From positions 51,874 through 115,873 of IMG/VR virus record IMGVR_UViG_3300031992_000038: a stretch of DNA of 64,000 nucleotides. One strand, written 5' to 3'. Position numbers and translations under genes: made by a program. The number at the start of each line of letters is the position of its first letter. Position 1 is the first letter of the stretch. The stretch is from a virus (taxonomy: Duplodnaviria > Caudoviricetes). The notes under the pieces were generated by a model. The model was not told the DNA's origin and did no database searches. It saw nothing but the letters and a program-made list of their open reading frames with translations. Of the stretch, positions 6,501 through 60,589 are shown one piece after another.

Positions 6501-7628
6501 TCAAATGTCAAAAGCCGCGAACGCTCTCACGCGAAGGCGTTGATTGCCAAAGTCTTCGCCCTTAAGTCTATTGAACACGTTGCCATTGAGTTCGAGGCTC
6601 CACGCGGCTTCTGCATCGCACTCTGAGGAAGACCAACACGCAAGCCCCAAAGAATTGCTGTCATTCGTGAGGTCTCCGAACTGAACGGCTGAGTCACCAA
6701 GAGCAGTGAGCGACTCGTTTATCTTCTTAACTCTTGTGTACAGGTAACCCAATTCTCCGAGCGCTGGCAGGTACCATTGATTTTGCTCTGTCCCAATTGT
6801 GCTGAACAGGTGGCACGCGAACGCTGCGGGATAGTTCGCCGCATCGTTAGCGAATGCGCCGCTTGAATAGGTGTCCTTGATTGCTGACAGGTTGACAAGC
6901 ACTTCTGTGTTCGCCTTGCCGTCCATGTCTGCTAGCGCCTGGCCCGCTGTGAGGTACGATGGGTTCTGAGAGCCGTCTGAAGCATAGGGGGAGATGGCGA
7001 ATGGTGGCTCGTATGGACCATCCCATGGGTCTTCGCCCTCACCGATTTCAGACCACCAAGAGGTCTCGGTGTCCACCGTGTTGTCAATGACGGTTATGGG
7101 ATATGTGCCATTACCGATTATCTCAATCGTCGACATGCCCTTGTATAGGTCGCTCGGGAAGTGCCGATTACCTCTTGATGTCTGCCCGTCACTGAACATT
7201 AAGCTTTGGTAATTCGTCAGTCCTGCGACATCCGTACCTCCCACACCCCACCTAAAGTTCGTGCCGTTGGTCACTGCGTTATCGTTGCCTGTTCCGAGCG
7301 TTCCTTCCTGCGGTGTGACATACGACATGTTGCACAGAGACATGCCCCTACACTTTCCGTCAGGCATGTGCGACGCGGGGATAACAACCACCGCCACAGG
7401 CGTTCCGAGAGAAGCGTTCCATTCATCCTTGCTTGTCGCATTCAGCGTTCCGTTGCTCTCAGCATAGATGATTGAACCCGGAATGTTCTTGTAATCAATG
7501 ACGGCCACCTTGTTGTATGTCACCGTGGTATCCGCGGTGATGTAGCCGACCCAAGGTTCATTGTACCCTTCGCCGTTATAGACAGCGTCATGGGCGGATT
7601 TTGTATCAAATAAATGCAAATAAGCCAT
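6501..7628 (-). CDS. EPWV-tagged protein with DUF1566/C-type-lectin-like C-terminal domain
   Basis: N-term YLHLFDTKSAHDAVY..YNEPWV..TYNK; C-term WYLPALGEL...WSSSE...RVRAFAAF; paralog at 43028-43993. Confidence 0.8.
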   Translation of the reverse strand: MAYLHLFDTKSAHDAVYNGEGYNEPWVGYITADTTVTYNKVAVIDYKNIPGSIIYAESNGTLNATSKDEWNASLGTPVAVVVIPASHMPDGKCRGMSLCNMSYVTPQEGTLGTGNDNAVTNGTNFRWGVGGTDVAGLTNYQSLMFSDGQTSRGNRHFPSDLYKGMSTIEIIGNGTYPITVIDNTVDTETSWWSEIGEGEDPWDGPYEPPFAISPYASDGSQNPSYLTAGQALADMDGKANTEVLVNLSAIKDTYSSGAFANDAANYPAAFACHLFSTIGTEQNQWYLPALGELGYLYTRVKKINESLTALGDSAVQFGDLTNDSNSLGLACWSSSECDAEAAWSLELNGNVFNRLKGEDFGNQRLRVRAFAAFDI

Positions 7629-7736
7629 TTCTTAAGTAATGTTTGTCTTTACATAAATAGCAGTACCATTTTCAGTAACCAACGAAACGGTCGAAACTAA
7701 GACTCCCCTGTTTTAATGAATTTTAACATTAAAAAA

Positions 7737-7768
7737 TTTGTTTCATCCGTAAATTTTACTATCTTTGC
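7737..7768 (+). promoter_or_regulatory. Bacteroidota sigmaA-type promoter (-33 TTTG, -7 TATCTTTG)
   Basis: tttg-tttcatccgtaaattttac-tatctttg immediately before ATG 7772; similar -7 boxes at ~8965, ~10754, ~60731, ~61853. Confidence 0.7.
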
Positions 7769-7771
7769 GGC

Positions 7772-8077
7772 ATGAAAGAGAAGAAGATATTATTCATCAC
7801 CGACCGCCACCAAAACTGTTGGATATGCGAACTGAACAGCGTGAAGTCCGGACTTATACTTACCGACGCCGACTACTCCGTGTCCACCGGTGTGATGACG
7901 CTGCATGACCCTCCTCAGGCGATTGAGAACGAGTCAAACGCCAACGTCAGGGAGGCGACCGAACAGGAAAGGACGATGTTCTTGAGAATAAAGGACAGCA
8001 ATGCTGTCATTGAGCGAGACGAGTCAACCGGAAAGGAGAACAACGAAAAGACTGAAACGAATGGACAAGACAAATGA
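7772..8077 (+). CDS. Hypothetical protein
   Basis: ORF behind promoter, overlaps start of next gene. Confidence 0.65.
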   Translation: MKEKKILFITDRHQNCWICELNSVKSGLILTDADYSVSTGVMTLHDPPQAIENESNANVREATEQERTMFLRIKDSNAVIERDESTGKENNEKTETNGQDK

Positions 8078-8936
8078 CATCATAGGGGCGTGCTACCCCG
8101 GCGGGTACATACGCCAATGCGACTGTGCCGACCTGATGGACAGCATGATAGAACGCGGGGACAAGGTCGACCTCATCGTCACGTCACCGCCGTATGACGA
8201 TCTGAGGACATACGGAGACGTCGCGATATGGAACTTCGACAAGTTCATGGACCGCGCATTGAAGATGGGTGATGTGCTCAATGACGGAGGAGTGCTTGTG
8301 TGGGTCGTCGGAGACGCCACCGTGAAGGGCGGGGAGACAGGCACGTCATTCAGGCAGGCGCTGTTCTTCATGGACGCCGTCGGGTTGAAACTGCACGACA
8401 CAATGATATACGAGAAGAACTCGTCCACATTCCCGGCGAAAAGGACGGGCAACCGATACACGCAGATTTTCGAATACATGTTCGTTTTTGTGAAGGGGAA
8501 AAAACCGCGTGTGGCCAATCTGATATGTGACAAGGCCAACAAATGGGCCGGGCACACGTCTTGGGGCGACCAGATCATATATGAGGTGGACGGCACCCGC
8601 AGCAACCTCGGCAAGACCAAACCGGTGCCGGACTTCAGTCCGCGCACAAACATATGGAAGTACACCGTCGGGTTCAACGGGAGGAAGGGGCATCCGGCAC
8701 AATTCCCGGACCGGCTCGCCCTTGACCATATACTAACGTGGACGAACGAGGGGGACACCGTTTTCGACCCGTTCCTCGGAAGCGGGACAACGGCAATCGC
8801 CGCCATCAGGAGCGGCCGCAGGTTTATCGGGAGCGAGACAAACCCCGAATATTTCGAGATATGCAAGAAGTACATCAGTGCCGAATATGACAAGATGAAA
8901 ACGGATTCTGACGCGAATACAGTTAAAAACTGTTAA
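8061..8936 (+). CDS. Orphan DNA methyltransferase, N4-C/N6-A beta class
   Basis: DLIVTSPPY catalytic motif N-terminal, HPAQFP, VFDPFLGSGTT SAM-binding motif C-terminal. Confidence 0.92.
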   Translation: MDKTNDIIGACYPGGYIRQCDCADLMDSMIERGDKVDLIVTSPPYDDLRTYGDVAIWNFDKFMDRALKMGDVLNDGGVLVWVVGDATVKGGETGTSFRQALFFMDAVGLKLHDTMIYEKNSSTFPAKRTGNRYTQIFEYMFVFVKGKKPRVANLICDKANKWAGHTSWGDQIIYEVDGTRSNLGKTKPVPDFSPRTNIWKYTVGFNGRKGHPAQFPDRLALDHILTWTNEGDTVFDPFLGSGTTAIAAIRSGRRFIGSETNPEYFEICKKYISAEYDKMKTDSDANTVKNC

Positions 8937-8982
8937 TGTACTTGCACAATTCATATTTTTTTATTACCTTTGCGAATAAACT

Positions 8983-9438
8983 ATGAAATATAAAGCGATG
9001 AACAGAAGACTTGGTACAACAATCAGCACGAGCCGTGCGCTCATCGAGGCCGGTGTCGACGCACAGACTGCCGACATGAAGTGGTCGGTTGTTGACGGCG
9101 AGTGGGACCTGGCTCCGCTACATCACGTGTTCAACGTGAAGTCGGAGTCATACAAGAGCGGCAAGGCATATCCGGCGTGGTCATGGGACTGTCTCTTCTC
9201 CATGCTGCCGACCGCAATAACGATAAAGAACAAGAACGGCAACCTCTGCAACTGCAGACTGTCTGTCGTGCGCAACGGCACTGAGATAGTCGAGCACAGG
9301 TACATGCCGATACAGCAGACAGACCCTGACGAGTTCTGTGAGAAGACATGTTCCCATCCCATTCCTGTCGAGTCTGCCGCAGAGATGGTAATTTGGTTAC
9401 ACAAACGTGCGGATGAAGATACAGACGGCAGAAAATAA
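8983..9438 (+). CDS. Hypothetical protein
   Basis: ORF behind TACCTTTG promoter; TADM.W and PAWS motifs. Confidence 0.7.
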   Translation: MKYKAMNRRLGTTISTSRALIEAGVDAQTADMKWSVVDGEWDLAPLHHVFNVKSESYKSGKAYPAWSWDCLFSMLPTAITIKNKNGNLCNCRLSVVRNGTEIVEHRYMPIQQTDPDEFCEKTCSHPIPVESAAEMVIWLHKRADEDTDGRK

Positions 9439-9573
9439 CAACGGAAAGTTTGTCGCACGCTTCAAACCGTGCGCGGTGTGCAAATGGCGAACAATCATGA
9501 CGCCAGATCACACGCAGGCGATGGAGTTTGACACTGCCGAAGACGCACGAATACACATAAAACAAACATATAC

Positions 9574-10338
9574 ATGGAAAAGGTTAATAAGAAACTTAAT
9601 GCAAAAAATAAAATAGTATGCGAATTGAACTCCAAGTTCTATGTGTTCGGGCTGGGCGGAACACCTGCCGGCGAGAAGTACGCGTACAGTGCATACAAAG
9701 TAAACGAAAACAACAACAAAGAGTATTATTTCTCCATTGAAAGCGTAAACAGTGACAAGACTGTCACATTCAACGGAAAGAAATACTCCGACACCGGGTC
9801 ATTGATCAAGGCCGTTGACGAATACAACTCGTCATTAAAGTATCCGATCGCCACTTACGACCCAATGCTCTCTGACCATTGGAGGATGGAGGAACGGGTG
9901 CTGTCCTATCTGAAGGACACTGTCGGTTTCAAGGCACATTCTGACGGTGAGTACGGGTACAGCGACTACGTGCTCGAGACGTCGAACGGGAACAGATTCA
10001 TGACACTCGGATTGTCACGCACGAGCGACAAAGACACCATCCGCGTGTCGTTGGACGGAAAGACCAGCATGATATTCGAGATTACCGACGAGGACTCCGC
10101 AATCAGGACAATAAACGTGTTCCTTATGTCTTCATGCGCAAGCGCAATCAAAATGGCGACAGACGTGAGCGGTTCGCTTTTTGAGGGATTCGCAATGGAC
10201 GACAACATCAAGGAGTTCGACGGGTCAATTCGATGCTTCCTCGACGGCGGATACGACCCGAGGGAAAAAGTGCTCAAACAACTTGAGGATGCGGCGGAGG
10301 CAATCCGTGAAAGTCTAAAACGGGAGTCTGAACGATGA
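9574..10338 (+). CDS. Hypothetical protein
   Basis: 254-aa ORF, ATGA overlap with next gene. Confidence 0.7.
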   Translation: MEKVNKKLNAKNKIVCELNSKFYVFGLGGTPAGEKYAYSAYKVNENNNKEYYFSIESVNSDKTVTFNGKKYSDTGSLIKAVDEYNSSLKYPIATYDPMLSDHWRMEERVLSYLKDTVGFKAHSDGEYGYSDYVLETSNGNRFMTLGLSRTSDKDTIRVSLDGKTSMIFEITDEDSAIRTINVFLMSSCASAIKMATDVSGSLFEGFAMDDNIKEFDGSIRCFLDGGYDPREKVLKQLEDAAEAIRESLKRESER

Positions 10339-10706: not shown

Positions 10707-10780
10707 TAAAAGTTTTTTTGCACTTTTTATTTTCCCGTGTTCATAAAATTTTGTATCTTTGTGGAAAATTTGTAGCAAAC

Positions 10781-11590
10781 ATGGAGAAATACATCAAGAC
10801 AAACCTGAGGTGGCCGGGCGGAAAATCCCGTATGATGAAGATACTGAAGAATTATCTGCCGGAACGCATCGACAAATACTATGAGACATTTGTCGGTGGA
10901 GGGAGCGTAATGCTGTACATAACGCAGGCTTACCGTCCGTCGGTGAACATCGCCAATGACATAGACGAGTCCCTCATCAACTATTACAGATCCATCAAGG
11001 AAGACCCGTCCGGGGTGATGGAGAAGTGCATGAGCATAAAGGAGAAGTACGGTCCTGACGAGTTCAAAGAAGTGTTCCGAACCCTCGACAGAAACACCGC
11101 ACACGGTTTTTTCATCTACAACAAGTCGTCTTTCTCCGGTATCGGCAGGAATTTCTCCCGTCTGGCGTACATAAGGAATTTCAGCGTTCAGTCAATAAAC
11201 AAGATTTCTGACGTGTCCGGTGTGATACAGGACGTGGATTTCATATGCGCAGACTATCAGGACATCGGAGACCTCGACGGGTTTTTCATATACATGGATC
11301 CGCCATATTACGAGAACAGCAGCAAAGGACTCTACGGCGAGCACGGAAACCTGCACAAGGGGTTCGACCATGACAGGATGTTCGAATGGGTGGAACGGAT
11401 GTCAAAGAGGAACAAAATCATGATAAGCTACGACAATTCAGAATATGTCAGGTCAATGTACAAGGGCTATCACATACACGACTTCGACTTCGTGTACTCA
11501 ATGACAAACACCGGCGGGAACCTGTGCAAGACAGGAAAAGAAATCGTCATAACAAACTATGATGTCAGAAACAATGAGACTCTTCAATAA
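10781..11590 (+). CDS. dam: Dam-family (D12 class) N6-adenine DNA methyltransferase
   Basis: LRWPGGKSR, YYETFVGGGSV, NDID, FIYMDPPYY, EIVITNY. Confidence 0.9.
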   Translation: MEKYIKTNLRWPGGKSRMMKILKNYLPERIDKYYETFVGGGSVMLYITQAYRPSVNIANDIDESLINYYRSIKEDPSGVMEKCMSIKEKYGPDEFKEVFRTLDRNTAHGFFIYNKSSFSGIGRNFSRLAYIRNFSVQSINKISDVSGVIQDVDFICADYQDIGDLDGFFIYMDPPYYENSSKGLYGEHGNLHKGFDHDRMFEWVERMSKRNKIMISYDNSEYVRSMYKGYHIHDFDFVYSMTNTGGNLCKTGKEIVITNYDVRNNETLQ

Positions 11591-11801: not shown

Positions 11802-11823
11802 CAGACAAAACAAGATACGGAAA

Positions 11824-14257: not shown

Positions 14258-14282
14258 ACATCCAACAAAAACAAACCAAGAA

Positions 14283-15870: not shown

Positions 15871-16518
15871 TCAATTGTTCGGTTTCATCATAGTTCCCTT
15901 TATTTGATTAATCTCGAACGCGCCTCCGCTGTAAACGATTCTATATTTTGACTCTGACACATACATTAGCGGAGTTTCCGTCACAGTCCTCGGTATCTCG
16001 CTGACGTCCACACCGTTCAGTGTGGTGAAAAATATCTTTTGTACCTCCTGCCCCTTTTGCTTATAGACACCGTTGCTCTCCTCATACCACGTCTTCTCGA
16101 CAGGTATTATCGCAAAACCGTCCACAAGCAACGACTCGCCAACCGTCAGCGAACTTCCGTCAGCGGACAAGGTCACAGCGCCGTCCGGTATGGGAACATC
16201 ACCGCCGACAGAACTGAACTGATCGTACTTGTTCTGACGGACGAGACTGTAGTCGTGCGGACGGTACCCGAGCAGTGTCGTGTTGTACCTCTCGGTGATA
16301 GGGTTGATAGTCACCGTCAATTCGTTCTTGATGCAGTCGTTGCACCAGTTGTCGATGTCGTAGAGCATGGCGAACGACAGCTCCGGCTTGTTGTAGGTCA
16401 TCACCCCCGAGTCCACCTGAATCGCCACCCAAGGCTCGCGGTAGGATGAATCGTCGTCATATATTGCGTCGTGACTCGCGGAGTCAGCGTATCTGTGCAG
16501 GAATTCAGTGTATCCCAT
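15871..16518 (-). CDS. EPWV-tagged protein
   Basis: FLHRYADSASHDAIY..YREPWV..TYNK; TATTTATA upstream on the coding strand. Confidence 0.75.
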   Translation of the reverse strand: MGYTEFLHRYADSASHDAIYDDDSSYREPWVAIQVDSGVMTYNKPELSFAMLYDIDNWCNDCIKNELTVTINPITERYNTTLLGYRPHDYSLVRQNKYDQFSSVGGDVPIPDGAVTLSADGSSLTVGESLLVDGFAIIPVEKTWYEESNGVYKQKGQEVQKIFFTTLNGVDVSEIPRTVTETPLMYVSESKYRIVYSGGAFEINQIKGTMMKPNN

Positions 16519-16645
16519 TGGTTGTCACAAAAATTTTTTGATTTATTGTTTACAAATATAAATAGGGAACTATAAATATAGGCCCTTGAAAAACACATCT
16601 GCCGATTTTGGCGGTGAAGTCTATTTATGCGTATACGCAAGAGAC

Positions 16646-17326
16646 ATGAAGCATAAAAGACAGTTGAGGAAGCTCGTTGATGAGTGTGTAGATAGATGCT
16701 TGAGAAAATATTTGGACGAAAGCATTAAAACCCACGATGATGAGTTTAATATCTATGAGAAACTTGAAGAACTTGACATTTCCTATGACTTCATCAATGA
16801 CAGGGAAAACATATTGGAAATACGGACACCGGACAACAGCACAAAGGCAAAGGTAAGGCAACTGCTCAATCTCTATGGATGGAAGGAGATAAAGGATAAC
16901 GGATGGTCGGTTTGCGCCGAAAGGATATACGGTGATATATGGAATAATTTCTATGACACTGAAGCAGAAGAAGACGACGAGTACCCTTATGGCGTCGGCA
17001 TCTATTACCACATAACGCCATCCTACAAAGTGCCAAAGATATTGAGGCAAGGACTTACTGTGAGAGAGGGAAACAAACTTGGATACGCAAGAGGTGAGAG
17101 AATATACCTGTTGTCGTACCCGGGACAAGAGTTTGCTTACCATCTGTTCAGAGACCGCAAAGGAAAAACCGAAGTGACCATCCTGCTTGTCGACATCAGA
17201 AAATACCTCGGAAAGCAAATAAACATATATCACGACGATTTCACAAGCGACGACGGGGCTGTCTACACTTATGACTATATTCCGCCCCAATGCATAAAGG
17301 TTTACGAAACCTTTGAAATATCATAG
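16646..17326 (+). CDS. Putative ADP-ribosyltransferase-fold (KptA/Tpt1-like) protein with LTE-like tag
   Basis: YYHITP...ILRQGL...RIYL...IPPQCI; TATTTAT at 16622. Confidence 0.6.
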   Translation: MKHKRQLRKLVDECVDRCLRKYLDESIKTHDDEFNIYEKLEELDISYDFINDRENILEIRTPDNSTKAKVRQLLNLYGWKEIKDNGWSVCAERIYGDIWNNFYDTEAEEDDEYPYGVGIYYHITPSYKVPKILRQGLTVREGNKLGYARGERIYLLSYPGQEFAYHLFRDRKGKTEVTILLVDIRKYLGKQINIYHDDFTSDDGAVYTYDYIPPQCIKVYETFEIS

Positions 17327-17380: not shown

Positions 17381-17980
17381 ATGAAACGTAAAATACAGTT
17401 GACAGAAGGCGAACTCAGGGAGATGGTGAGGGAAAGCGTTGAACGCGTCCTCAATGAGATTGATCAGACGAAGTGGGGCCTTTGGGCGGCTCAGCAAAGA
17501 GAACAGCAAAGAATCGGGAAAAGACCGCTGTCCGCTGCGTCAAAGAGAGTCTTTGACAGAGACTATGCTGGACGCTCCAATATCGCAAAGACACGCTTTT
17601 TTGACGACAAGATAGACGACGACCTGCTTTCAGCGGAAAAAGAATTCAGCAAAAAGCACTTCGATGAGGATCCAAGCAGCGCCGGACGCGTCAGTACAAA
17701 GTTCTCCCCGGACTTGATGACAAGCACCGGAGGCGTCAATGTCCACCAGAGAGCAAACTATATGGGCGGGAAACTGCAAAGAAACCGCGACTACTACATC
17801 AACCCGTACAACCGCGAAGAATGGGGTTCTGCGGACGGCACGAAGGGGTATGACAGCCTTGGTCCGGGAATGTCCGTGAGAAGGAGGAACACACTGCCGA
17901 TGAGCGACGACGCGCGCAGACAGCTGAACGGCGCACTGGATGACCTGTCAGACTACTACGAAAAGGGTCTGGATTATTAA
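17381..17980 (+). CDS. LTE-tagged hypothetical protein
   Basis: MKRKIQLTEGELREMVRESVERVLNE; TATTTAT at ~17357. Confidence 0.75.
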   Translation: MKRKIQLTEGELREMVRESVERVLNEIDQTKWGLWAAQQREQQRIGKRPLSAASKRVFDRDYAGRSNIAKTRFFDDKIDDDLLSAEKEFSKKHFDEDPSSAGRVSTKFSPDLMTSTGGVNVHQRANYMGGKLQRNRDYYINPYNREEWGSADGTKGYDSLGPGMSVRRRNTLPMSDDARRQLNGALDDLSDYYEKGLDY

Positions 17981-19652: not shown

Positions 19653-20315
19653 TCAAAGACCCGGAGTGTCGTCCCAGCTGCCGCCGCGCCCGCGGAGACG
19701 ACGGCGCTCCAAACTGCGGATGCCGTCCTTGACAGCGTCAGACACCGCCTTGCCGGCTGTTTTCAGTCCCTTGCCGGCCGCCTTCAGACCCTTTCGCCCG
19801 TAATGATATCCGATACCCGCGCCAAGACCGGCGGCACGGCCTACCTTGCCGCGCCAAGACGTGTCCACCGGGCGGCCGTCGTTGCCGAGCGACGACATGC
19901 CGTTTCCGTCCTCGTCGTACACTGCGGAATAACTTCCTGAACCGCTCTCAAGCCTGTCCGGCCTGTCAGTGCCCGTCCTCACATAGTTCGCCATGTCTTT
20001 CAACGAAGCGTCCATGTCAATGTCGTCGTTGTTCGAACTGCGCACAATGTCGCGGAACTTGTTCCATCCCTGACCCTCGGACAACGCCTCGTTCACCGCA
20101 CGGGAAACCACACCGCGCAGCGCTGACTCGTCTTTCCTCTTGTCACCGCGCCTCGGCAGACGCTTGCGCACCTCACCGGCAGCACGGCGGAAACTCTCCC
20201 TGTCAGGACGCATATCCTCGGGATACTCCATGTCCGCCTCAGACAGACACCCGCGCACAGCGCGCTCGACCATAGAACGGAGATCCGACTCCGTCAACCT
20301 GTATACTCTCGCCAT
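19653..20315 (-). CDS. LTE-tagged hypothetical protein
   Basis: MARVYRLTESDLRSMVERAVRGCLSE plus internal ESALRGVVSRAVNEALSE. Confidence 0.7.
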   Translation of the reverse strand: MARVYRLTESDLRSMVERAVRGCLSEADMEYPEDMRPDRESFRRAAGEVRKRLPRRGDKRKDESALRGVVSRAVNEALSEGQGWNKFRDIVRSSNNDDIDMDASLKDMANYVRTGTDRPDRLESGSGSYSAVYDEDGNGMSSLGNDGRPVDTSWRGKVGRAAGLGAGIGYHYGRKGLKAAGKGLKTAGKAVSDAVKDGIRSLERRRLRGRGGSWDDTPGL

Positions 20316-25175: not shown

Positions 25176-25436
25176 ATGAAAAAGAACATTTATCTTGTAG
25201 TGCATTCGTCATACCTTGACAGTCTCTACACCGAGGTGACAATCCACACTGACTATGAGAAGGCAGTTCGCGCATTCGAGACCGACATCGAGGACATCAA
25301 AGAGTCTACCGATGGAGAAGAAGAGGATGAGTACTATCGCCTTTGTGAATATCCCGATGGGCGGAAGAAGTTCAATTTTTTCGACCCATTCAGCAACCAC
25401 GAATATCGGGTTTCGCTTGAAATCCGTGAATTGTGA
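25176..25436 (+). CDS. Array cassette gene, acidic hypothetical protein
   Basis: Follows module leader. Confidence 0.7.
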   Translation: MKKNIYLVVHSSYLDSLYTEVTIHTDYEKAVRAFETDIEDIKESTDGEEEDEYYRLCEYPDGRKKFNFFDPFSNHEYRVSLEIREL

Positions 25437-25487
25437 GAACGGAGGCGGGTGTCTTGCGGCATCCGCCCATTTATCATTAAGATTGAT

Positions 25488-49961: not shown

Positions 49962-50301
49962 ACACCAAACTACCGATAAAAACAACAATCCCCACTCATC
50001 AAAACCAACCTGATGAATGGGGGTTGTTCGCTTTTGGAACAATTTTTAAAATTTTCCCTATGGGGATTTTCCCGAACAAGGCGAATTCAGTTCCGTTTTG
50101 GAACAATTTTACCAAAGGTAAGCCTTCCCGTCTTGCGACATTTGAAGGTAAGCATTTTCCTCGACATGTGCAAGAGATTTAACTTTTTTAACACTTCTGT
50201 AGCAAGTATGTTAAAAGTGTTAATTACATTGGCCGTTCCAAATATTTTGCTTACCTTCCATCCGTAAAATGAAAGTTAAACCATAAACAAAACATCAGAC
50301 T

Positions 50302-50691
50302 ATGAACTATCTCAGTTATCACCTGAATGACGGGGCGGACTGGCAAGCAAGAGCAGTCCTCGCGTGTCTCGGAACATGCGGAGTCCCCGAGAACGTGGAC
50401 CTCAACGTGGCACGCTATCAGAACGGACGCGAGCAGGGGTACATCTTCACCGCACGCGTGAAACACACCGAGAGACAGCGCAATTACGCCGTATATGAGC
50501 ATCGCAACTCTGACGACCTTTGCGTGGTAGTGAACGACACGCACACATTCGGAGAACCCGCCTCAGAAATCATCTACGAAGGCATGAAGGACAAGTGGGA
50601 CACCACAAAGGACTTCCGCTGCGGGCAAATCCTTGAATGCGCTGAATGGATTCAGGACGACATCAGCGAGTGGGCGCAGCAGGAGAACTGA
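50302..50691 (+). CDS. Array cassette gene, hypothetical
   Basis: NGREQGY and EHRNSD motifs. Confidence 0.75.
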   Translation: MNYLSYHLNDGADWQARAVLACLGTCGVPENVDLNVARYQNGREQGYIFTARVKHTERQRNYAVYEHRNSDDLCVVVNDTHTFGEPASEIIYEGMKDKWDTTKDFRCGQILECAEWIQDDISEWAQQEN

Positions 50692-50809
50692 CAACACGCA
50701 CATACAGACAACCGATGACGGCCCGAGAACGCTGCACAAAGCGACCCGGGCCGCCAACGTAACCAAAAACAACGATTTCAGCGAACCGCCCAAAACGCTC
50801 AACAAAACC

Positions 50810-50932
50810 TCCTGCAAATTATAGCGAAATCAGTTCGCAGGAGCGGCGGGCACTGGATGACATCCCGTTCAGCGAAATCCCTGCGAATATCAACGAATTT
50901 CCTGCGAATTATAGCGAAATTGCTTGGCAGGG
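50810..50932. repeat. Short imperfect direct repeats (CCTGCRAAT..AGCGAAAT)
   Basis: cctgcaaattatagcgaaat at ~50811, cctgcgaatat at ~50880, cctgcgaattatagcgaaat at ~50901. Confidence 0.6.
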
Positions 50933-51015
50933 AAACGGACACTGGAACCTTGCGTTTTTAACACATTTTTAACATAATATATTTGGCCATTCCAAATATT
51001 ATTCTTACCTTTCAA

Positions 51016-51086
51016 ATGTTGGGAGAGGAACACCACCGCTCCCAAAGGGCAAGGGTAAGTCCTTGGAGTATAATCTCCGACGCGCA
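51016..51086 (+). ncRNA. Candidate structured ncRNA, copy 3 of 3
   Basis: TTGGGAG/CTCCCAA, CAAGG/CCTTG, GGAG/CTCC stems after promoter. Confidence 0.55.
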
Positions 51087-51779
51087 CTGCACTCTCCTCC
51101 TGAAAAACATACCTCTCTTAACAATCATTAACGCGCCAATCATTGCACATTCCCCGTTTTTTTCCTACCTTACGGATGTCAAGTGAGGGATACACCCCCG
51201 CACGACCGACAACACAGAACGACAAAATGAAAACGGCAATGGCAACACAGAGCAGAAGCGCACACGCAAGCGCAAGACAACAAGGGGACACCCGACCGCA
51301 CGCGCCGCCATCAGAACAACGGCGACCGGAACGCACCAGCATACACACGCACGGCCCGCACTACACCCGAGCCGCAACGGACGCCCAACTAACACAAATC
51401 ACCGCACGACAACAGACGGGAAAACTTACAATCCGTAACCGCACCCCCATACGGAACAAAAACGGATTGTAATATAAAAGCGGTATTTTTGTGACAAATT
51501 ATAACAAATGACAAGATAAGGACAAATGACGAAGGAAAATATGTTAAAGGTCATGGCGGCACATTCATACATGGATGACCGGCAGAGGAGGCTTGCGGTC
51601 TCCACAGCGATGAGGCTGAACAGCAAGACCGAGACGGAGGCGATGTACCGAATGTTCAGGGAACGGGCGCTCACGGCCGACACATGCCTCAGGGCACTCG
51701 CCACACCGAGAAGAATGAGGGACAGGGCGCAACACACGACCCCTCGTACTCAAATGAGTACAAACAACATCAGACGCAC

Positions 51780-52777: not shown

Positions 52778-53887
52778 TTACAGAAAGTCCATTTCCGCGA
52801 AGCACGACCATCCGTTGGCGTTGTGTGAGATACCGCCGAAACTGTACCGGTAGAGTGTCGCCCCGCCGCCTCCGTTCTGTCCGACGTTGAATGTGTAAGT
52901 GTTCGCCTCCGCTCCGTCCATGATGAGTGTCATCGAGCAGGCGGTGTACTTGTACTGTTCTGCGGGCACGAACCCGGATTTGTCCCACACTTCTTCTGAT
53001 TGGTGCAGCAGGTTCTGCGTCATCAGCGGCGTTGACGTTGCCGTGATTGTCTGGTTGGGTGTTCCGTCGCCCGTTCTCGACACGATGGTGTAGAACGCCG
53101 TCATCGGCGCCGCCGTGAACATGACTCCGTCTGCGCTCACTGTGCCAAGTTCTCCGGCATGCAGTGTGGCTTCCGCTGTCAGTATCTGTGAGGCGTGCTG
53201 CACCGCCTTGATGTCCACCTTGTAGACTTTCCCCTTGGCCGGCAAGTATTCCATGTCTATCTGCGCCGGTGTGACTGTCACCTTCGGGAATCCCGAGTAT
53301 GCTGTCAGCGTGTCGGAGGTGATGAACCGGACAAAGTATCTTATGTCCGTTTTGAGGTCGAATATGTAGTAAGGTGACGGGAGGGTGCTCACCGATTCGG
53401 CACCGCTATTTCTCGGTGTGGCCTCCACCGTTATTGTTCCTCCGTCCGCGAACTCCCTTGTTCCGAAGTCGTACTCCGTCTTTCCGTCCGCCACGAGTAT
53501 GTATGTGGCGTCCTCGGGCACTGTCACCGTGCCATCCGTCTTGTATGTCGTCACCACCGCGGCCGCGCAGTCCACCGCGGAGTTCTGCGCTATCCGTTTC
53601 CCGATGTAGTTTACCCTTTCCGTTTCTGCTATCGGCTGTGCGAGCAGGCACATCTTGCGCTGCGCTGTGGTGCCGAACAATATGCCGTCCACGACGACCA
53701 GCGTTTCGTTGTCGTACATGGAGGTGTCCTTTGCCGCCTGTTCGAGGGGCAGGCTTCTCTTGTTGTACGTGAGCGCGGCGGTCTGCTCGGTCAGGGCTAC
53801 CCACGGCTCGTCGTAGGCGTCCCCGTTGTAGTCTGCGTCGTGCTGCGCCTGCGTGCTGTACAGGTGGAGATACTTTGGTGTCCTCAT
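52778..53887 (-). CDS. EPWV-tagged protein
   Basis: YLHLYSTQAQHDADY..YDEPWV..TYNK; N-terminal ~70 aa similar to 56841. Confidence 0.8.
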   Translation of the reverse strand: MRTPKYLHLYSTQAQHDADYNGDAYDEPWVALTEQTAALTYNKRSLPLEQAAKDTSMYDNETLVVVDGILFGTTAQRKMCLLAQPIAETERVNYIGKRIAQNSAVDCAAAVVTTYKTDGTVTVPEDATYILVADGKTEYDFGTREFADGGTITVEATPRNSGAESVSTLPSPYYIFDLKTDIRYFVRFITSDTLTAYSGFPKVTVTPAQIDMEYLPAKGKVYKVDIKAVQHASQILTAEATLHAGELGTVSADGVMFTAAPMTAFYTIVSRTGDGTPNQTITATSTPLMTQNLLHQSEEVWDKSGFVPAEQYKYTACSMTLIMDGAEANTYTFNVGQNGGGGATLYRYSFGGISHNANGWSCFAEMDFL

Positions 53888-54020
53888 TGTTGTTATCCTG
53901 TTGTTTTGTGTTTATTTTTCCGACACGTTTTCTGTGTTTTCCCTATAAATATTTTCCTGTGTTTTTCCCCGTCCCCGTTATTTATGGTAATGATGCCACA
54001 AAGGGCATGATTGTCATTAT

Positions 54021-55046
54021 ATGGTTCCAGTACAATATCTCCACAAGTTCTCCGACGCTTCCGCCCACGACTCCGTGTATGACGGCGCCGGTTACGCAGA
54101 GCCTTGGTGTGCCCTCACCGCTTCCACGGGTGTTGTCACGTACAACAAGGCCCGCCGAATTGCCGTGTCGTTCTCCACGCTGTGCGACCCTTCGAACTAC
54201 CGTGCTGAGCAGACCCTCATCTACGTCCGCCGCGACGATTCGTCATATGTGACCGATTTCTATCTGAACGGTTCGGGATATGACATTGACAGTCTGGCGA
54301 ACGATTACGGTTCTGTCCCTTGTCAGTACAGTGTCTCAGTGACGACTGATTCCCCTGTCGTGACCGCGGAATGGTTCTCTGACGCGTTGTCACGTTCCCT
54401 TCCTTTCACTCTCGTTACCACCGAGTCTGATTTCGGCGACCTTGCTGTCAAGGAGACCGTGTCCCACAGCGCGAACCCTAACACGACCTACCGCTTCTAC
54501 GACCTCGGCGCCGGCAGGCAGGTGGACGCGTTGACCTACACCTGGGACGGTGTGGGTATGCTGGAGGACATTCCTTGGGCGTTCATTGAGCCGACGGGTC
54601 TTGACCGCGGGTTCTCTGCACCGTCTTCTGTTCCTTCGGTGCGGGCGGTCGACGACTACAATGTCGGTTCTGTGTCTCTTCTGCCTGTGTTGGTCGAGGA
54701 GTCGGGATGGTCGGTGGACCTCGGCGAGAACCTTGGCGGCGGGTACAGCATGTCGTATCAGGGTGACTCGGGGTCGTGCCTCGTTAACGGCTGGCCTCGC
54801 GGGTCGTTGGCGTCGGCCGACTTGTCGGGCGGCGGTTTTGACGTTGTCGAGACTGTGATGATGTCCAACGGCGCCGTGAATTACAGTTCGCACATCGGCG
54901 CGACGTACATGGAGGACGGTTCGGGCGCCAGCCTGACCGGACGCGTCATAACCGCAGGCGGTTCTGCTGTCGGCACCATTGGCAGCAATGGCGGATGGCT
55001 CAGCAAGACTGGCGGTGAATATGATTACTTCAACAACGAAAAATAG
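54021..55046 (+). CDS. EPWV-tagged protein
   Basis: YLHKFSDASAHDSVY..YAEPWC..TYNK; TATTTAT at ~53979. Confidence 0.8.
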   Translation: MVPVQYLHKFSDASAHDSVYDGAGYAEPWCALTASTGVVTYNKARRIAVSFSTLCDPSNYRAEQTLIYVRRDDSSYVTDFYLNGSGYDIDSLANDYGSVPCQYSVSVTTDSPVVTAEWFSDALSRSLPFTLVTTESDFGDLAVKETVSHSANPNTTYRFYDLGAGRQVDALTYTWDGVGMLEDIPWAFIEPTGLDRGFSAPSSVPSVRAVDDYNVGSVSLLPVLVEESGWSVDLGENLGGGYSMSYQGDSGSCLVNGWPRGSLASADLSGGGFDVVETVMMSNGAVNYSSHIGATYMEDGSGASLTGRVITAGGSAVGTIGSNGGWLSKTGGEYDYFNNEK

Positions 55047-55051
55047 CATAT

Positions 55052-56779
55052 ATGAGAGAATTTCTGCATTTATACGGAACTCAGTCCGAGTGGTCGTCTG
55101 ACTACAATGGTGCTGCGTACTATCAGCCGTGGGTGTCCTACGAGAAGGAGAACCGCACGGTGGCGTACAACAAGAGGAAGAGGCTGGTTGTGCTGACGTC
55201 GGCCTCTGACAGCAAGACTTACGACGGCACTGTGTTGGCGAACGACGAGGTGACCGTGTCCGGCGATGGGTTCAAGTCCGGCGAGGGCGCTGTGTATGAC
55301 TTCGGGGGCGAGCAGGTGCTTGTCGGCGCGAGCGATAACACTTTCGCTTACGCGCTGAACCCGGGCACGAACGCCTCGGACTACGACATCCGCGTCGAGT
55401 TCGGCACGCTTGAGGTGACCGACGGAACGGGCGCTGAAGAGGAACCTGTGGATCCCGAGTTTGTTGTGACCATGCTTGTGGACGAAACGTCTTCGGGTGA
55501 AGGACCCTACAAATTGAGGGACACCGTGTACTATGAAGTGACCGCGACGAACATATACGAGGAAAGGAAGGACATCAGTCTGTCGTCCATTGAGGGCGTG
55601 ACGCTTGACCGGGTTTATTTCAGCGGCGTCGAGGGCGGGCAAACCGTGACCACGCAGGCGCGTTATGGCATTACTGAGGCGGACATCGAAAGAGGCGAGT
55701 TCACCGCGTCTGTCACGGCAAGTGTCGGCAATCTGTCCAAACGTGCGGATTGCGCCATTGCCACCGAATCCCCCAACCCGGTCATGACAATAGGCATAGA
55801 AACGTTGACGACGCCGCCCGCAGGCATGGAATACTTCCCACTGGACGAAACGATACAATATGAAGTCACCGTGACAAATGACGGGAACATGTCGCTGAGC
55901 GAAATACGAGTCTCGTCAACAGACGGTACTATAAGACTAAACGGTCTGGCACCTGGAGAGTCAGAGACACGTCAATTCTCTCATATGGTGACAGAAGAAG
56001 ATATAGCGGCCGAAGAAATCAATGTCGCTTGGACAGGAACCGCTAAAAATTCTTTACTTGAACCGACAATTGTTAATGGCAACCAGTTAGTAGAGGCACC
56101 CGAGGAACCGAATCCCGTGCTCACCATTATTCCGCAAACAGTGTCAGTGCCATTTAACGGGGAATATTACACACTTGGCGAATGGATTCAATATCAAATA
56201 ACCGTGGAAAATGCCGGGAACCTGACGTTGACCAACATTGAAATTTCATCATCCGATGATAGTGATACATTCGATTCTCTAAGTCCTGGCTCATCCCAAA
56301 TGCGTCAATTCTCTCATGTGGTGACAGAAGCAGATGTACTTGCTGCCGGAGTCAACGTGGAATGGACCGGAACCGCTGACAATCCTTCCACTTACCCAAC
56401 GAGTGTCGAGAATGTTTCTATACAGGAGCAAATCGAGGGGCCGAATCCTCATGCGACCATAAGTTTCAATGTCACGTCGGAACCAGAGAATGGGGAATAT
56501 TACACTTTGGGTGAGACCGTTGAATATGATGTCACTGTGACAAACGACGGGAACCTCACGATGAACAACTTCGAGTTGGAGTCGTCTGATGGCGACACGT
56601 TCAGTCCAGCCAATCCGCTAGGACCGCTTGAATCGGTGAAAGACCAGTTCTACCACGATGTCACCCAGACCGACGTCGACAATGAAACTGTCGAGATAAC
56701 ATGGACTGGCACCGCAAACAACCCGTCGTCCGTTCCAACTGTCCTGCCATCGAACGTTTTGTCCGAGCCTGCCGGGTAA
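55052..56779 (+). CDS. EPWV-tagged adhesin-like protein with MBG-like and four Ig-like (DUF11/DUF7507-type) repeats
   Basis: SASDSKTYDG; repeated LGE.(I/V).Y.(V/I)TV.N.GN.T.....H.VT..D. Confidence 0.8.
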   Translation: MREFLHLYGTQSEWSSDYNGAAYYQPWVSYEKENRTVAYNKRKRLVVLTSASDSKTYDGTVLANDEVTVSGDGFKSGEGAVYDFGGEQVLVGASDNTFAYALNPGTNASDYDIRVEFGTLEVTDGTGAEEEPVDPEFVVTMLVDETSSGEGPYKLRDTVYYEVTATNIYEERKDISLSSIEGVTLDRVYFSGVEGGQTVTTQARYGITEADIERGEFTASVTASVGNLSKRADCAIATESPNPVMTIGIETLTTPPAGMEYFPLDETIQYEVTVTNDGNMSLSEIRVSSTDGTIRLNGLAPGESETRQFSHMVTEEDIAAEEINVAWTGTAKNSLLEPTIVNGNQLVEAPEEPNPVLTIIPQTVSVPFNGEYYTLGEWIQYQITVENAGNLTLTNIEISSSDDSDTFDSLSPGSSQMRQFSHVVTEADVLAAGVNVEWTGTADNPSTYPTSVENVSIQEQIEGPNPHATISFNVTSEPENGEYYTLGETVEYDVTVTNDGNLTMNNFELESSDGDTFSPANPLGPLESVKDQFYHDVTQTDVDNETVEITWTGTANNPSSVPTVLPSNVLSEPAG

Positions 56780-56840
56780 TCCTCCGCCCGCCGTTTGCGG
56801 GGGAGGCGTTCCCGATATTTATTAAAAACATCATCCTGCT

Positions 56841-57911
56841 ATGGTAGAATATTATCTTCACTTGTTTCCAGACACTGCTTCGCACGACGCCGTTTACGAC
56901 GGGGATCAATACCGCGAGCCTTGGGTCGCTCTGACCGAGCAGACCTCCGCCGTGACTTACAACAGGCCGCCGTCATGGACGTTTGACGAGGCGATCTTGG
57001 ACCTGTCACTGTACGACCAAGAGAAACTTGTCGTCGAGGACCTCGGCGCAGACGGGTACTACATGTATCTGTCGAACTCCGCGCAGACCGTGCAGTCGAT
57101 CATGTCTGACGGGATAAACTTCAGCGCCGCCGTCAATGTGCGGGGCCGCGAGATGACCATACCTTCCGACGCGTCATTCAAGTTGATCGCCTATCAAGAG
57201 GTGTCGTTGCCGGGAAGGGAGTTCACCTATGACGATATCACCGTCCAGACCGGCGGCAGCGAGGACTACTACGTCTACCTCTACGACTTCTCGACGGATG
57301 TCGTGAAAAGGGTCCATTGTGTCACCGGCGGGTCGACTTACTTTGAGATACCCTACAACTTCACGGCGGTGCCGTTGACGCAGCGCGAGTTCTCGAGCAA
57401 GCGTCTCCGCGAGAAGCTGGACGTCGACCTTGTGCAGCATCTTCCCGTGCTTACGGACAATGTTTACGGCGGGTCTTATGTCCGTGAAAACTACTACAAC
57501 GAAGACGGCATATTCGTGTTCACTAACGACGTCGGAACTGAGGATCCGGAATATTTGGTGGAAGTAATGTGCGGCGTCAAGCTCTCTGACTTCTTCACCG
57601 TCAACTCGATGAGCGGTGACGCTTCCAACCTGTTCACGATGGACATAACAAGGAAGCCGTTCTGGACCGACAATGTGCAGGTTTCTTATTGGGACTATCA
57701 GTTAAGATATTGGTATGACGGTGTTCTTCCTGAGACGGGATTCGATATCCCGAGGGAGGTTGACTTCTACGTGAGATTGACGATAGACGGAACTGAGGTC
57801 GCGAGGTCCGAGGCGAATAATTTGACTAATTACGCAGAATTTTACAAAGGCTCGAAGTTCAGTAATCAAGGCAACGGATTCAACGTTGAGGTTATGACTG
57901 AAGTGCGGTAG
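56841..57911 (+). CDS. EPWV-tagged protein
   Basis: YLHLFPDTASHDAVY..YREPWV..TYNR; TATTTAT at ~56816. Confidence 0.8.
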   Translation: MVEYYLHLFPDTASHDAVYDGDQYREPWVALTEQTSAVTYNRPPSWTFDEAILDLSLYDQEKLVVEDLGADGYYMYLSNSAQTVQSIMSDGINFSAAVNVRGREMTIPSDASFKLIAYQEVSLPGREFTYDDITVQTGGSEDYYVYLYDFSTDVVKRVHCVTGGSTYFEIPYNFTAVPLTQREFSSKRLREKLDVDLVQHLPVLTDNVYGGSYVRENYYNEDGIFVFTNDVGTEDPEYLVEVMCGVKLSDFFTVNSMSGDASNLFTMDITRKPFWTDNVQVSYWDYQLRYWYDGVLPETGFDIPREVDFYVRLTIDGTEVARSEANNLTNYAEFYKGSKFSNQGNGFNVEVMTEVR

Positions 57912-57953
57912 ACGGATTCATGAAATAATGTTTAGAAAAACATCAAAACTGTC

Positions 57954-58223
57954 ATGAATAAGAAACGTGTAATAAGGCTTACGGAGTCAGACATCCGCAG
58001 GATTGTGAGGGAATCAGTTAAGGACGAATTCTTATCTTCCCTCAGTCAGCCGGACGACGACGTGGCCGCCGAGACGCTTTCTCTCGCCAGGTCTGCGTAC
58101 GATAGTCTGTGCCGTCTGAACCGCTTTGCGGCCGACAACGACATGTATGAGCTCGCCCGCGACAGCGCTGCGCTGGCCAAGTATGCCGGCGACCTTGTCG
58201 GGCGCATCGAGGCGTCGATGTGA
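57954..58223 (+). CDS. LTE-tagged small protein
   Basis: VIRLTESDIRRIVRESV. Confidence 0.7.
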   Translation: MNKKRVIRLTESDIRRIVRESVKDEFLSSLSQPDDDVAAETLSLARSAYDSLCRLNRFAADNDMYELARDSAALAKYAGDLVGRIEASM

Positions 58224-58336
58224 CATCTTCCGGTTCACTTCTGCCGGACTGTGTGGCGGGCGTTTGCGTCCGCCGCTTCTTTTTTTGCAATTATCTGAAC
58301 GAGATGACTATATTTAAAACAAAACAATGAAGAAAC

Positions 58337-59032
58337 ATGAAGCGGGCAATAAGACTCACTGAAGGTGATTTAAAACGGATGGTAAAAGAATCGGTCAACA
58401 AGATTCTCAATGAAGAGGATGGTTTCAGGCAAGTCGACGACCTGAACGCCTATGTTGCCTCAAATGGACTGAAAATGAGACCTGCGTCCAAATTCCAAAG
58501 GGTCAATGCACAAAGCGGCAAACGTTACATTGACCAATATGGTAAACAGAATGGGATGGACAAAAGGCAGATAGGAAGAATGGTTAGGCGAGGTGGCGCC
58601 CCGCTCACTACTGTCGCAGGTGACGGGACACAAGAGACAAACAACATGGTCACAAGGAACCATACCGTCTTGAACAACGTTGGCAACACCTCAAACAGAT
58701 GGGCAGTTGAGACACCCACATTCAAAAGGAAATATGAGCGAGACCCTTCAAATGGAGGAACATATAAGCCGAAAGGTGGACCAATGAACGCCGCACAGAT
58801 AAATGAGCCAATATCGTTCACGGCGCCTTGGGGAGAGAAGATGAATGTGGATAAAGGCGGTTATATCCTTCAAGACCCAGACAACCCCAACGACATATAC
58901 GGCATCAGCGGTAAGGATTTTGACTCGACATACAGGTTTAATGAGGGGAAAAACAGAATTAGAATTTCTGAGGCACAGTTGCGTCAGATAATCAAAGAAA
59001 GTGTTCAGGGCGTGTTGGATGAAGGCATATAA
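58337..59032 (+). CDS. LTE-tagged protein with PGDYG-like domain
   Basis: IRLTEGDLKRMVKESVNKILNE; APWGE.M....GGYI....YGI...DF..TY; second tag copy at the C-terminus. Confidence 0.75.
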   Translation: MKRAIRLTEGDLKRMVKESVNKILNEEDGFRQVDDLNAYVASNGLKMRPASKFQRVNAQSGKRYIDQYGKQNGMDKRQIGRMVRRGGAPLTTVAGDGTQETNNMVTRNHTVLNNVGNTSNRWAVETPTFKRKYERDPSNGGTYKPKGGPMNAAQINEPISFTAPWGEKMNVDKGGYILQDPDNPNDIYGISGKDFDSTYRFNEGKNRIRISEAQLRQIIKESVQGVLDEGI

Positions 59033-59230
59033 CCCAATGTGTGGTTAATCCACGCATTTTCATGGTTAATCCACATCACGCAATCTTAATTCACGCCAAG
59101 TGACAATCAGAAACGCTCCAATAGGGGCGTTTTTCTTGTAGTGAACCGCTAAAGTCCGTTTACAAGAAAATCCATCTATGCCCTGAGTTAGCGCACAGAT
59201 GGATTTGTTGTCTGTTGTCAAATGTTTATC

Positions 59231-60589
59231 TTACGCGGACGCGGTCTCAACGGTCCATCCTGTCGGGATTCCGTTGACACCAGTAACATTCCAATTCGCA
59301 GCGCTGTTCTTGACGAAGGTTCCTGATGATGCGACACCATTAACCCAATTAAGTGTATAGTCGTCTGATGGTGTAGTTGTAAACATCGCCTTGATATAAT
59401 TCAATGATGCGCAACCACGGAATAATCCACTATAGCAATAGTCAGCCAACGTTGTCGCAGGAAGTTCTGGTGCTGCGGTCAATGACGTGCAGTTTCTGAA
59501 TATACTTTCGTAACAGCCATCAGTCAACGTTGTCGCCGGCAGTTCTGGCGCTGTGACCAATGAAGTACAATCTATAAACATACCTTGGTAGCAATATATA
59601 TCCAACGTTGTTGCAGGAAGAACAGGTGCTTCGGTCAATGACGTGCAACTTGTGAACATACCTTGGTAGCAATATTTAGTCAACGTTGTCGCAGGAAGTT
59701 CAGGCGCGGTCGTCAATGATGTGCAACCTTTGAACATGCCAGTGTAGCAGAACTGAGCCAACGTTGTCGCAGGAAGCGCAGGTGCTGTAGTCAATGATGT
59801 GCAATCTTGGAACATGCCGTCGTAGCAATACCGAGCCAACGTCGTCGCCGGAAGCACAGGCGCCGCTGCCAATGATGTGCAACCATTGAACATGTTGGAG
59901 TAGCAAATATCAGACAACGTTGTCGCAGGAAGAACTGGTGCCTCTGTCAATGCGGTGCAATCTTGGAACATGTTTCTGTAACAATTCATTGCCAACGTGG
60001 TCGCTGGAAGTTCAGGCGCGGTCGTCAATGAGGTGCAACCACTGAACATGCTGCCGTAGCAATACTCAGCCAACGTTGTTGCTGGAAGAACCAATTTATC
60101 CGCGGAAGTCAATCCAACTGAGTTTACGAACAGGTCATAAAATGCGTAATTCTTATTAGAAAAATCTGTTACACTATCAAACCCATCTCCATACAGCAAG
60201 GAGTAAGGATTTCCCATCGCCTCATAACGGCCAGTTGACCCGAAACTTCCAATTCCGCTATAATCCTCTGGTGTCAATGTTGCCTTGAACATAATTGTCC
60301 CACCGGCGCTCACTGTCGGGGTGCTCGTATTCTCCGCTAGTTCTGTCCACGTCTCGCCTCCGTCAATAGAGTAGTTTACTCCGGATTTAGTGAAAGAGAA
60401 TGTTCCGTCCTCAAGTGCTTTGAATGTCAAATATTTCTCAGCCCATCCCTTGTTGTATGTCACAAGTTCCGAGCCGTCGTCCACGCACGCCACCCATGGT
60501 TCGTGATATTCACCGCCATCCCCATAGGAGCGGGCGGTGTCGTGTTGTTGCTTGGTGCTAAACTCGTGAAGAAATTTTGTATATGCCAT
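59231..60589 (-). CDS. EPWV-tagged BspA-like leucine-rich-repeat protein
   Basis: About nine 26-aa repeats LPATTL...CY..MF..CTSLT.AP; N-term FLHEF..HD..YHEPWV..TYNK. Confidence 0.88.
   Translation of the reverse strand: MAYTKFLHEFSTKQQHDTARSYGDGGEYHEPWVACVDDGSELVTYNKGWAEKYLTFKALEDGTFSFTKSGVNYSIDGGETWTELAENTSTPTVSAGGTIMFKATLTPEDYSGIGSFGSTGRYEAMGNPYSLLYGDGFDSVTDFSNKNYAFYDLFVNSVGLTSADKLVLPATTLAEYCYGSMFSGCTSLTTAPELPATTLAMNCYRNMFQDCTALTEAPVLPATTLSDICYSNMFNGCTSLAAAPVLPATTLARYCYDGMFQDCTSLTTAPALPATTLAQFCYTGMFKGCTSLTTAPELPATTLTKYCYQGMFTSCTSLTEAPVLPATTLDIYCYQGMFIDCTSLVTAPELPATTLTDGCYESIFRNCTSLTAAPELPATTLADYCYSGLFRGCASLNYIKAMFTTTPSDDYTLNWVNGVASSGTFVKNSAANWNVTGVNGIPTGWTVETASA

Follow-up and report, generated by a model that had tools for sequence, protein, structure and literature searches.

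An N-terminal tag shared by ten phage genes

The 64,000-nucleotide stretch analyzed here, referred to below as the window, covers positions 51874 to 115873 of the 115,873-bp IMG/VR record IMGVR_UViG_3300031992_000038 and carries a set of genes whose products begin with the same segment of about 40 residues (the tag) and then continue into very different bodies. The original prediction, made from the letters of the window, had named eight open reading frames (ORFs) opened by this motif and had read it as a docking peptide for interchangeable adhesin-like domains. A profile hidden Markov model (HMM) built from the eight N termini in the window was compared with every one of the 1537 stop-to-stop frames in the record; it recovered all eight ORFs with matches at residue 1 and added two others upstream of the window (25343 to 26338, plus strand, and 50156 to 51250, minus strand, in record numbering). 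The ten ORFs matched with E values of 3e-28 to 1e-20, against 0.86 for the next best frame of the whole record, and in 10/10 the tag starts at the start codon. The tag genes of the window are the following.

Tagged gene 1: 6501-7628, minus strand, 375 residues; tag at residues 1-40 (~7509-7628); body with a C-type-lectin fold; HMM E value 7.5e-26
Tagged gene 2: 15871-16518, minus strand, 215 residues; tag at ~16372-16518; body with no Pfam or PHROG match; HMM E value 6.3e-27
Tagged gene 3: 20491-21873, minus strand, 460 residues; tag at ~21724-21873; no TATTTAT within 100 nt upstream; HMM E value 8.1e-24
Tagged gene 4: 52778-53887, minus strand, 369 residues; tag at ~53747-53887; body with weak similarity to the gene 7 body; HMM E value 3.1e-28
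Tagged gene 5: 54021-55046, plus strand, 341 residues; tag at 54021-54161, EPWC variant; HMM E value 4.2e-27
Tagged gene 6: 55052-56779, plus strand, 575 residues; tag at 55052-55186, QPWV variant; three DUF7507 repeats; HMM E value 2.4e-24
Tagged gene 7: 56841-57911, plus strand, 356 residues; tag at 56841-56978; HMM E value 1.1e-26
Tagged gene 8: 59231-60589, minus strand, 452 residues, counted from ATG 60589; tag at ~60440-60589; BspA-type leucine-rich-repeat (LRR) body; HMM E value 8.5e-23

As had been claimed, these genes flank an array on both sides, namely, the cassette array at 22.4 to 52.2 kb. A ninth, divergent copy proposed for the ORF at 18018-19559 (plus strand) had to be dropped: this ORF scored E > 1 with three tag HMMs and 1.6% probability in hhalign, and its resemblance to the tag is confined to the first ~11 residues (a 'KYLKKYTDTKD' start). 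In the alignment of the ten tags, L6, Y24, P27, W28, Y40, and N41 are invariant. The codons at invariant residues vary synonymously (CCT, CCG, or CCA for proline; GTC, GTG, or GTA for valine), and their third-position identity of only 40% argues for selection and conservation at the protein level.

Large terminase and portal genes open the window. The terminase is of a distant T4 gp17 type, ~26% identical to the terminases of Flavobacterium phage immuto and of T4-like cyanophages; CheckV puts the completeness of the record at 32%, which implies a genome of ~360 kb; and a megablast search of GenBank phages with 20 kb gave no DNA-level match. On these three grounds, the source is an uncultured, jumbo myovirus-like phage that is distantly T4-like. 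Its domain repertoire suggests a host among the Bacteroidota, and related contigs bear the labels STEW18/19, WILK20, TONG22, and PRJEB21624, which we take to denote rumen studies. A protein identical to the product of gene 1 is also encoded on a contig of 330,287 bp.

Predicted fold of the tag

An AlphaFold2 model of the gene 7 tag alone, based on a 27-sequence alignment, reached a predicted local distance difference test (pLDDT) score of 88 and comprises a strand (residues 6 to 9), a helix (residues 12 to 19), and two further strands (residues 29 to 32 and 37 to 40). The same elements recur in a full-length model of the gene 1 product (pLDDT 93.4 overall and 87 to 89 in the tag), in which the body begins at residue 41. 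A model of this confidence indicates a folded domain instead of a loose peptide, and we describe the tag as a predicted autonomous β-α-β-β mini-domain of ~40 residues. The notion of a docking peptide thus keeps its first half, one N-terminal unit common to all members, and loses its second, since the unit is modeled as a domain and not as a linear peptide. Equally, the tag is no signal peptide, as had been stated: it is hydrophilic and aromatic, has the modeled β-α-β-β order, and has neither a hydrophobic core nor a lipobox.

The best structural match of the tag is the collagen XVIII/XV trimerization domain (Z 4.4; root mean square deviation, 2.5; 42/54 residues). Lower-scoring matches include the N termini of several tailspikes and tail fibers (Z 2.4 to 3.0), namely, residues 10 to 49 of K1 lyase, 3 to 47 of GVE2 ORF18, 14 to 63 of Kp7 gp52, and 16 to 67 of AS12 gp42, as well as residues 5 to 40 of Mtd (Z 2.0). 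All of these lie within the chance range for small folds, and we treat them as a lead, drawn from models, toward a 'trimeric N-terminal foot'. A search of the ESM Atlas with the tag gave sub-threshold leads only, and neither collagen-like repeats downstream of the tag nor a conserved protease-site or cleavage motif after it was found.

Bodies behind the tag

With the tags removed, the ten bodies fall into seven classes: a three-member C-type-lectin family, made up of gene 1 and the two tagged copies upstream of the window; one weak pair, genes 4 and 7 (22.5% identity over 315 residues; E value, 9e-6); and five singletons. The picture of one common N-terminal module set on interchangeable adhesin-type domains therefore holds, with ten tags spread over seven body classes, and the description of the bodies as unrelated is nearly right, save for the lectin family and the weak pair. 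Most of the body identities that had been suggested also stand. Pfam recognizes LRR_5 (PF13306) in gene 8 (E value, 2.5e-8) and the Ig-like DUF7507 (PF24346) in three stretches of gene 6 (E value, 5e-33), and a fold search with the gene 1 body (residues 41 to 373) retrieved 4eps (Z 14.0), the Lcl C-terminal domain (Z 9.3), and, at Z 6.5 each, Mtd and TvpA, in keeping with a C-type lectin; the MBG domain that had been suggested was not confirmed. An ESM Atlas search with the gene 3 body returned sub-threshold leads only.

The same variety appears in the wider family described below. Among 83 longer tag-family matches, 14 carry LRR_5, and DUF7507, Lcl_C, BACON, and viral BACON domains also occur; by motif, a 'GLPSGxLW' module is present in about a dozen of the 150 family matches listed. 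A fourth lectin paralogue, P0180 (337 residues), lies on the 330-kb contig and begins with a Lys/Pro-rich segment where the others have the tag; this may reflect a variant that lacks the tag or a mis-called start.

Tagged lectins and diversity-generating retroelements

At two related loci (L018 and L019), the gene of P0008, a tagged lectin with 57% identity to the product of gene 1, is followed by bAvd and then by a reverse transcriptase. The 3' end of the P0008 gene pairs with a template repeat (TR), and within a 124-nt core, 17/17 mismatches fall at TR adenines and 0/79 at other positions. A second locus of a diversity-generating retroelement (DGR), with a protein of a divergent tag subtype (P0306), has the same gene order. 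By this substitution pattern, the tagged C-type-lectin protein of the relatives is a DGR target, like Mtd of Bordetella phage.

In the record itself, the last ~150 nt of gene 1 (6501-6650) resemble a DGR variable region (VR). The three lectin paralogues differ at 33/45 TR-adenine columns against 21/79 others (Fisher p 6e-7), with the VR framework kept, and from such alignments the 3' end of gene 1 looks like a DGR variable region. The protein would then combine a C-type-lectin fold with a C-terminal variable region, as DGR variable proteins do. No reverse transcriptase, Avd, or TR was found in the 116-kb record, which amounts to 32% of the genome.

Distribution and subtypes of the tag family

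Searches of Pfam, NCBIfam, PHROGs, and PDB sequences with the tag yielded only noise, tblastn searches of GenBank phages with two tag subtypes and a divergent full-length homologue gave no match, and we found no prior description of the tag in the literature. When 1.84 billion representatives were searched exhaustively with the profile, 654 clusters scored E ≤ 1e-3, and 89 reached E ≤ 1e-10. Judged by these searches, the tag defines a domain family that is undescribed in the libraries covered and that is large. Nearly all of the 150 matches listed begin within the first 10 residues of the protein, and the few that begin later, at residue 94 at the latest, seem to have mis-called starts.

The family seems to be restricted to phages. 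Six example carriers lie on contigs of 40 to 360 kb or on fragments of phages of ~340 to 370 kb, a narrow tag pattern matched two IMG/VR loci, and two IMG/VR fragments with a tag are 13 to 17% complete and 44 to 62 kb long. The strict core pattern Y-N-G-x2-Y-x-E-P-W-V occurred once in 185,579 species genomes, in a Ginsengibacter metagenome-assembled genome; the tag HMM ruled this instance out, and we regard it as a chance match. The six phage contigs, together with the lack of a true match of this one core pattern in cellular genomes, support the phage restriction at the sequence level.

Relatives, too, bear several tag genes per locus: four consecutive ones in L014/L015, three in L016, and two in L018. 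In distant homologues of the lectin protein, the tag takes divergent forms, such as 'MDYLKLF...KPNVSHC...VHYNP', and this KPNVS subtype also heads LRR_5 and other bodies on contigs of 363 to 393 kb. An HMM built from non-EPW subtypes only still recovers the tags of the window (E values of 4e-7 to 0.07), which points to one superfamily with lineage-specific subtypes. Within one genome, unrelated bodies share a subtype. In L023, the tag of a lectin gene and that of an unrelated LRR gene are 92% identical; the helix reads 'HDAVY' in all ten tags of the present record (EPWV type), 'EFxEAY' in L014, and 'AFTEAY' in L016; and mean tag identity is 0.51 within genomes versus 0.41 between genomes. Such genome-specific signatures would fit co-evolution of the tag with one partner per genome.

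Two further observations concern the tag genes of these relatives. In a related 368-kb phage, a poly-G run within a Gly loop interrupts the tag of an LRR gene and measures G12 in L023 (5600-5611) and G10 in L024 (5600-5609), the in-frame length being G11; either slippage, and with it phase variation, or an assembly error in the homopolymer accounts for this difference. Transposases of the IS1595 family adjoin tag genes at L015 (2378-3358, minus strand), L018 (4396-5154, plus strand), and L019 (541-1563, plus strand).

A promoter-like motif upstream of tag genes

The motif TATTTAT has 29 sites in the 116 kb, compared with ~16 expected from base composition, and 19/29 lie 8 to 100 nt upstream of ORF starts on the same strand. 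It occurs 25 to 64 nt upstream of six of the eight tag genes in the window and of both copies outside it, that is, of 8/10 in the record, which bears out the earlier remark that most tag genes have such a site. The sites in the window are the following.

TATTTAT site: 7653-7659, minus strand, 31 nt upstream of gene 1
Equivalent TATTTAT sites: 16558-16564, 16572-16578, 53945-53951, and 60617-60623, minus strand
Equivalent TATTTAT sites: 53979-53985 and 56816-56822, plus strand

Gene 6 starts 5 nt past the end of gene 5 and lacks a separate promoter motif. For gene 8, we favored the ATG at 60589 over the GTG at 60658 because a TATTTAT lies 34 nt upstream of that ATG. In related contigs, a promoter-like CTATTTAT is found 20 to 45 nt upstream of 11/13 tag genes. 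Within the record, TATTTAT is common to most of the tag genes, the gene after the portal, a 929-residue tail-fiber-like gene, and a set of genes with a second leader. This distribution of sites suggests that TATTTAT marks a phage promoter class, possibly a late one by analogy with the T4 TATAAATA.

The 929-residue protein is encoded at 7290-10079 (minus strand) of the record, upstream of the window; it has several tail-fiber PHROG matches and a TATTTAT 27 nt upstream but no tag, and it is a candidate primary fiber or socket. The second leader is an N-terminal segment unrelated to the tag, with the approximate consensus R-L-T-E-x-[DE]-L-x-x-M-V-x-E-[SA]-V. It opens the ORFs at 17381-17980 (plus strand), 19653-20315 (minus strand), and 58337-59032 (plus strand) of the window, where it recurs at the C terminus of the last, and a weaker copy is found at 16646-17326 (plus strand); each of these genes has a TATTTAT upstream.

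Relation to known systems

The closest parallel in layout is offered by systems of branched receptor-binding proteins (RBPs). In Klebsiella phages KP32, K11, and KP34, RBP2 bears a 'conserved peptide' that goes with T4gp10-like branching domains (PMC6872550), the docking peptide of this architecture has been validated (PMC13352976), and the jumbo phage phiKp24 has fourteen putative tail fibers (PMC9700779). Like the tag set, these systems pair a conserved N-terminal part with swappable C-terminal specificity domains and can equip a single (jumbo) myovirus with many paralogous heads; the tagged proteins have the corresponding conserved N-terminal module and variable C-terminal head, both in the record (ten tags, seven classes) and across the 654 clusters. 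The differences are nevertheless considerable: (i) the tag has no sequence similarity to the anchors of branched RBPs, its model being only weakly like several tailspike N termini (Z 2.4 to 3.0); (ii) the tagged heads have lectin, LRR, and Ig adhesin folds, whereas branched-RBP heads are β-helix depolymerases; (iii) tag genes are dispersed over the genome; and (iv) a single domain heads all paralogues, in contrast to the graded N-terminal lengths of branched RBPs. The T4gp10-like family PF07880 had no match in three fragments that are 13 to 32% complete, but control genomes gave no match either.

Mtd of BPP-1 and other DGR variable proteins provide the second parallel. In them as in the tagged lectin of the relatives, the C terminus has a C-type-lectin fold and the 3' end of the gene carries the VR, and the target-avd-TR-RT order in the tag relatives is that of Mtd-type systems; Mtd and the tagged lectin both open with a small domain ahead of the body. 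The likeness of the bodies is limited to the fold (Z 6.5, 14% identity), however, the tagged protein is without the β-sandwich middle domain, and, unlike in Mtd systems, the tag is also set on proteins that are neither lectins nor DGR targets. With the trimerization domain of collagen XV/XVIII (multiplexin), the tag shares its size and the β-α-β-β order, but that domain belongs to an animal protein and is 5 to 7% identical to the tag, and on the evidence here, the two are not homologous. We also considered the tentaclins, which carry an N-terminal lectin (PMC10743442), and rejected them as the tag family: with the lectin at the N terminus, their topology is the opposite one (PMC10743442).

Most likely, then, a known principle—a conserved N-terminal anchor combined with a variable head—is carried here by an undescribed domain, so that the novelty would lie in the domain family and its scale and not in the mechanism.

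A possible virion anchor for interchangeable heads

Our preferred reading, to which we assign a probability of roughly 0.55, is that the tag is a virion-anchor module, probably trimerizing, for interchangeable receptor-binding heads; anchoring, trimerization, and presence in the virion are properties that we infer. The ~40-residue N-terminal domain would act as the common foot of a large paralogous set of receptor-binding or adhesin proteins, would probably trimerize, and would plug these proteins into a shared virion socket of a distant T4-like jumbo myovirus. This socket may sit on the baseplate, on the primary tail fiber, or on the capsid or tail surface. The C-terminal heads (C-type lectin, BspA LRR, Ig-like repeats, and unknown folds) would do the binding, and some of them would be further diversified by a DGR. 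What favors this reading is that a conserved N-terminal domain, a variable C-terminal head, and many paralogues together make up the layout of modular RBPs. The confident model of the tag, the adhesin and lectin types of the heads, the DGR link in relatives, the weak fold matches to a trimerization domain and to tailspike N termini, the tag subtypes shared within genomes, the TATTTAT sites also found at the tail-fiber-like gene and the gene after the portal, the lack of a true match of the core pattern in cellular genomes, and the tag gene next to a baseplate-wedge gene in L011 speak for it as well. Several points weigh against it. The searches of GenBank phages produced no cultured relative; at least ten heads for one socket pose a problem of stoichiometry; recent duplication or gene conversion could equally yield the similarity of tags within genomes; the tag genes, apart from a 141-residue tagged gene directly after a baseplate-wedge gene in L011, are scattered among replication and metabolic genes outside any tail module; every structural match of the tag stays below Z 5, such that a common small fold could explain the matches; and the 116 kb searched contain no reverse transcriptase, Avd, or TR.

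The stoichiometry would be eased if the same anchor principle served a socket on the surface of the capsid or tail, in the manner of Hoc/Soc-like or head-fiber-like decoration, with heads that adhere to surfaces or glycans instead of serving primary host recognition. For at least ten heads per third of a genome, the hundreds of equivalent positions that a jumbo capsid offers are a better fit than the six of a baseplate, the Ig-like and BACON types among the heads are characteristic of decoration proteins, one tag gene adjoins the terminase-portal module, and a trimeric plug—if the tag, on the strength of a weak fold match, trimerizes at all—would suit local threefold sites of the capsid. We regard this placement as a serious alternative but as less probable than our preferred reading, given that DGR-diversified C-type-lectin heads are classically the tips of tail fibers (PMC10743442), that the tag gene of L011 follows a baseplate-wedge gene, and that no homology to capsid decoration proteins was detected. 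Still less probable, though worth keeping in mind, is that the tag is a unit of oligomerization (trimerization) and nothing else, the proteins being soluble multivalent lectins that are released at lysis or act in or on the host and never join the virion. Its best fold match is indeed a dedicated trimerization domain (Z 4.4), and its genes are dispersed outside the structural modules. This would leave unexplained, however, why each genome sets one tag subtype on unrelated heads and why that subtype differs between genomes; the strict N-terminal position of the tag before a variable C terminus is the layout of receptor-binding proteins, and structural-type genes have the same promoter motif.

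Two other explanations fare considerably worse. The capsid-targeting sequence of T4-type phages is an N-terminal peptide of ~10 residues, carried by internal or injected proteins and removed by the prohead protease. In favor of a comparable packaging signal, one by which cargo would be loaded into the head and injected, the tag is an N-terminal element common to diverse proteins of a T4-like phage, and the same genome has a second, different leader family. Yet the tag is modeled as a folded domain of ~40 residues and not as a short, cleavable peptide, no conserved protease-site motif follows it, and the bodies have extracellular-type adhesin folds (lectin, LRR, and Ig), one of them a DGR target, all of which makes a role in capsid targeting very improbable. 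We give scarcely any weight to the idea that the conserved element acts at the DNA or RNA level, for translation initiation or as a recombination site for cassette exchange, with a peptide that is itself functionless. Tag genes do flank a cassette array, and shared 5' ends could promote recombination; against this stand the several synonymous codons at invariant residues (third-position identity, 40%), the high confidence with which the peptide is modeled (pLDDT 88), and the retention of the same architecture by subtypes that have diverged in sequence.

If the tag is a virion anchor, one 40-residue profile would reveal the receptor-binding and adhesin repertoire, hundreds of protein clusters in all, of an uncultured giant-phage clade whose structural genes are otherwise unrecognizable. 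DGR targets and BspA-type LRR, Ig, and BACON proteins would be joined in one functional class, and the combination of plug and swappable head, with DGR-ready lectins, would offer a compact natural scaffold for phage display and host-range studies. Extending the virion-anchor reading, one may speculate, at rather long odds, about a lineage-wide plug-and-display system in uncultured jumbo phages of 330 to 390 kb, from rumen or gut to judge by their sample names, in which dozens of heads on a trimeric plug compete for one socket; DGRs would hypermutate part of these heads, and poly-G runs within the tag might switch others on and off, so that virions would be combinatorially heterogeneous and the population would hedge its bets on host and surface recognition.

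Neighboring genes

Close to the portal, the window encodes an acidic, helix-rich protein of 304 residues (4988-5902, plus strand) that follows the portal, has a TATTTAT upstream, and is a possible scaffold, as well as a phrog_1501 protein downstream of the portal (5926-6393, plus strand). Two DNA methyltransferase genes, at 8001-8936 (plus strand; phrog_67) and 10718-11590 (plus strand; phrog_56), lie between the head module and tag genes.

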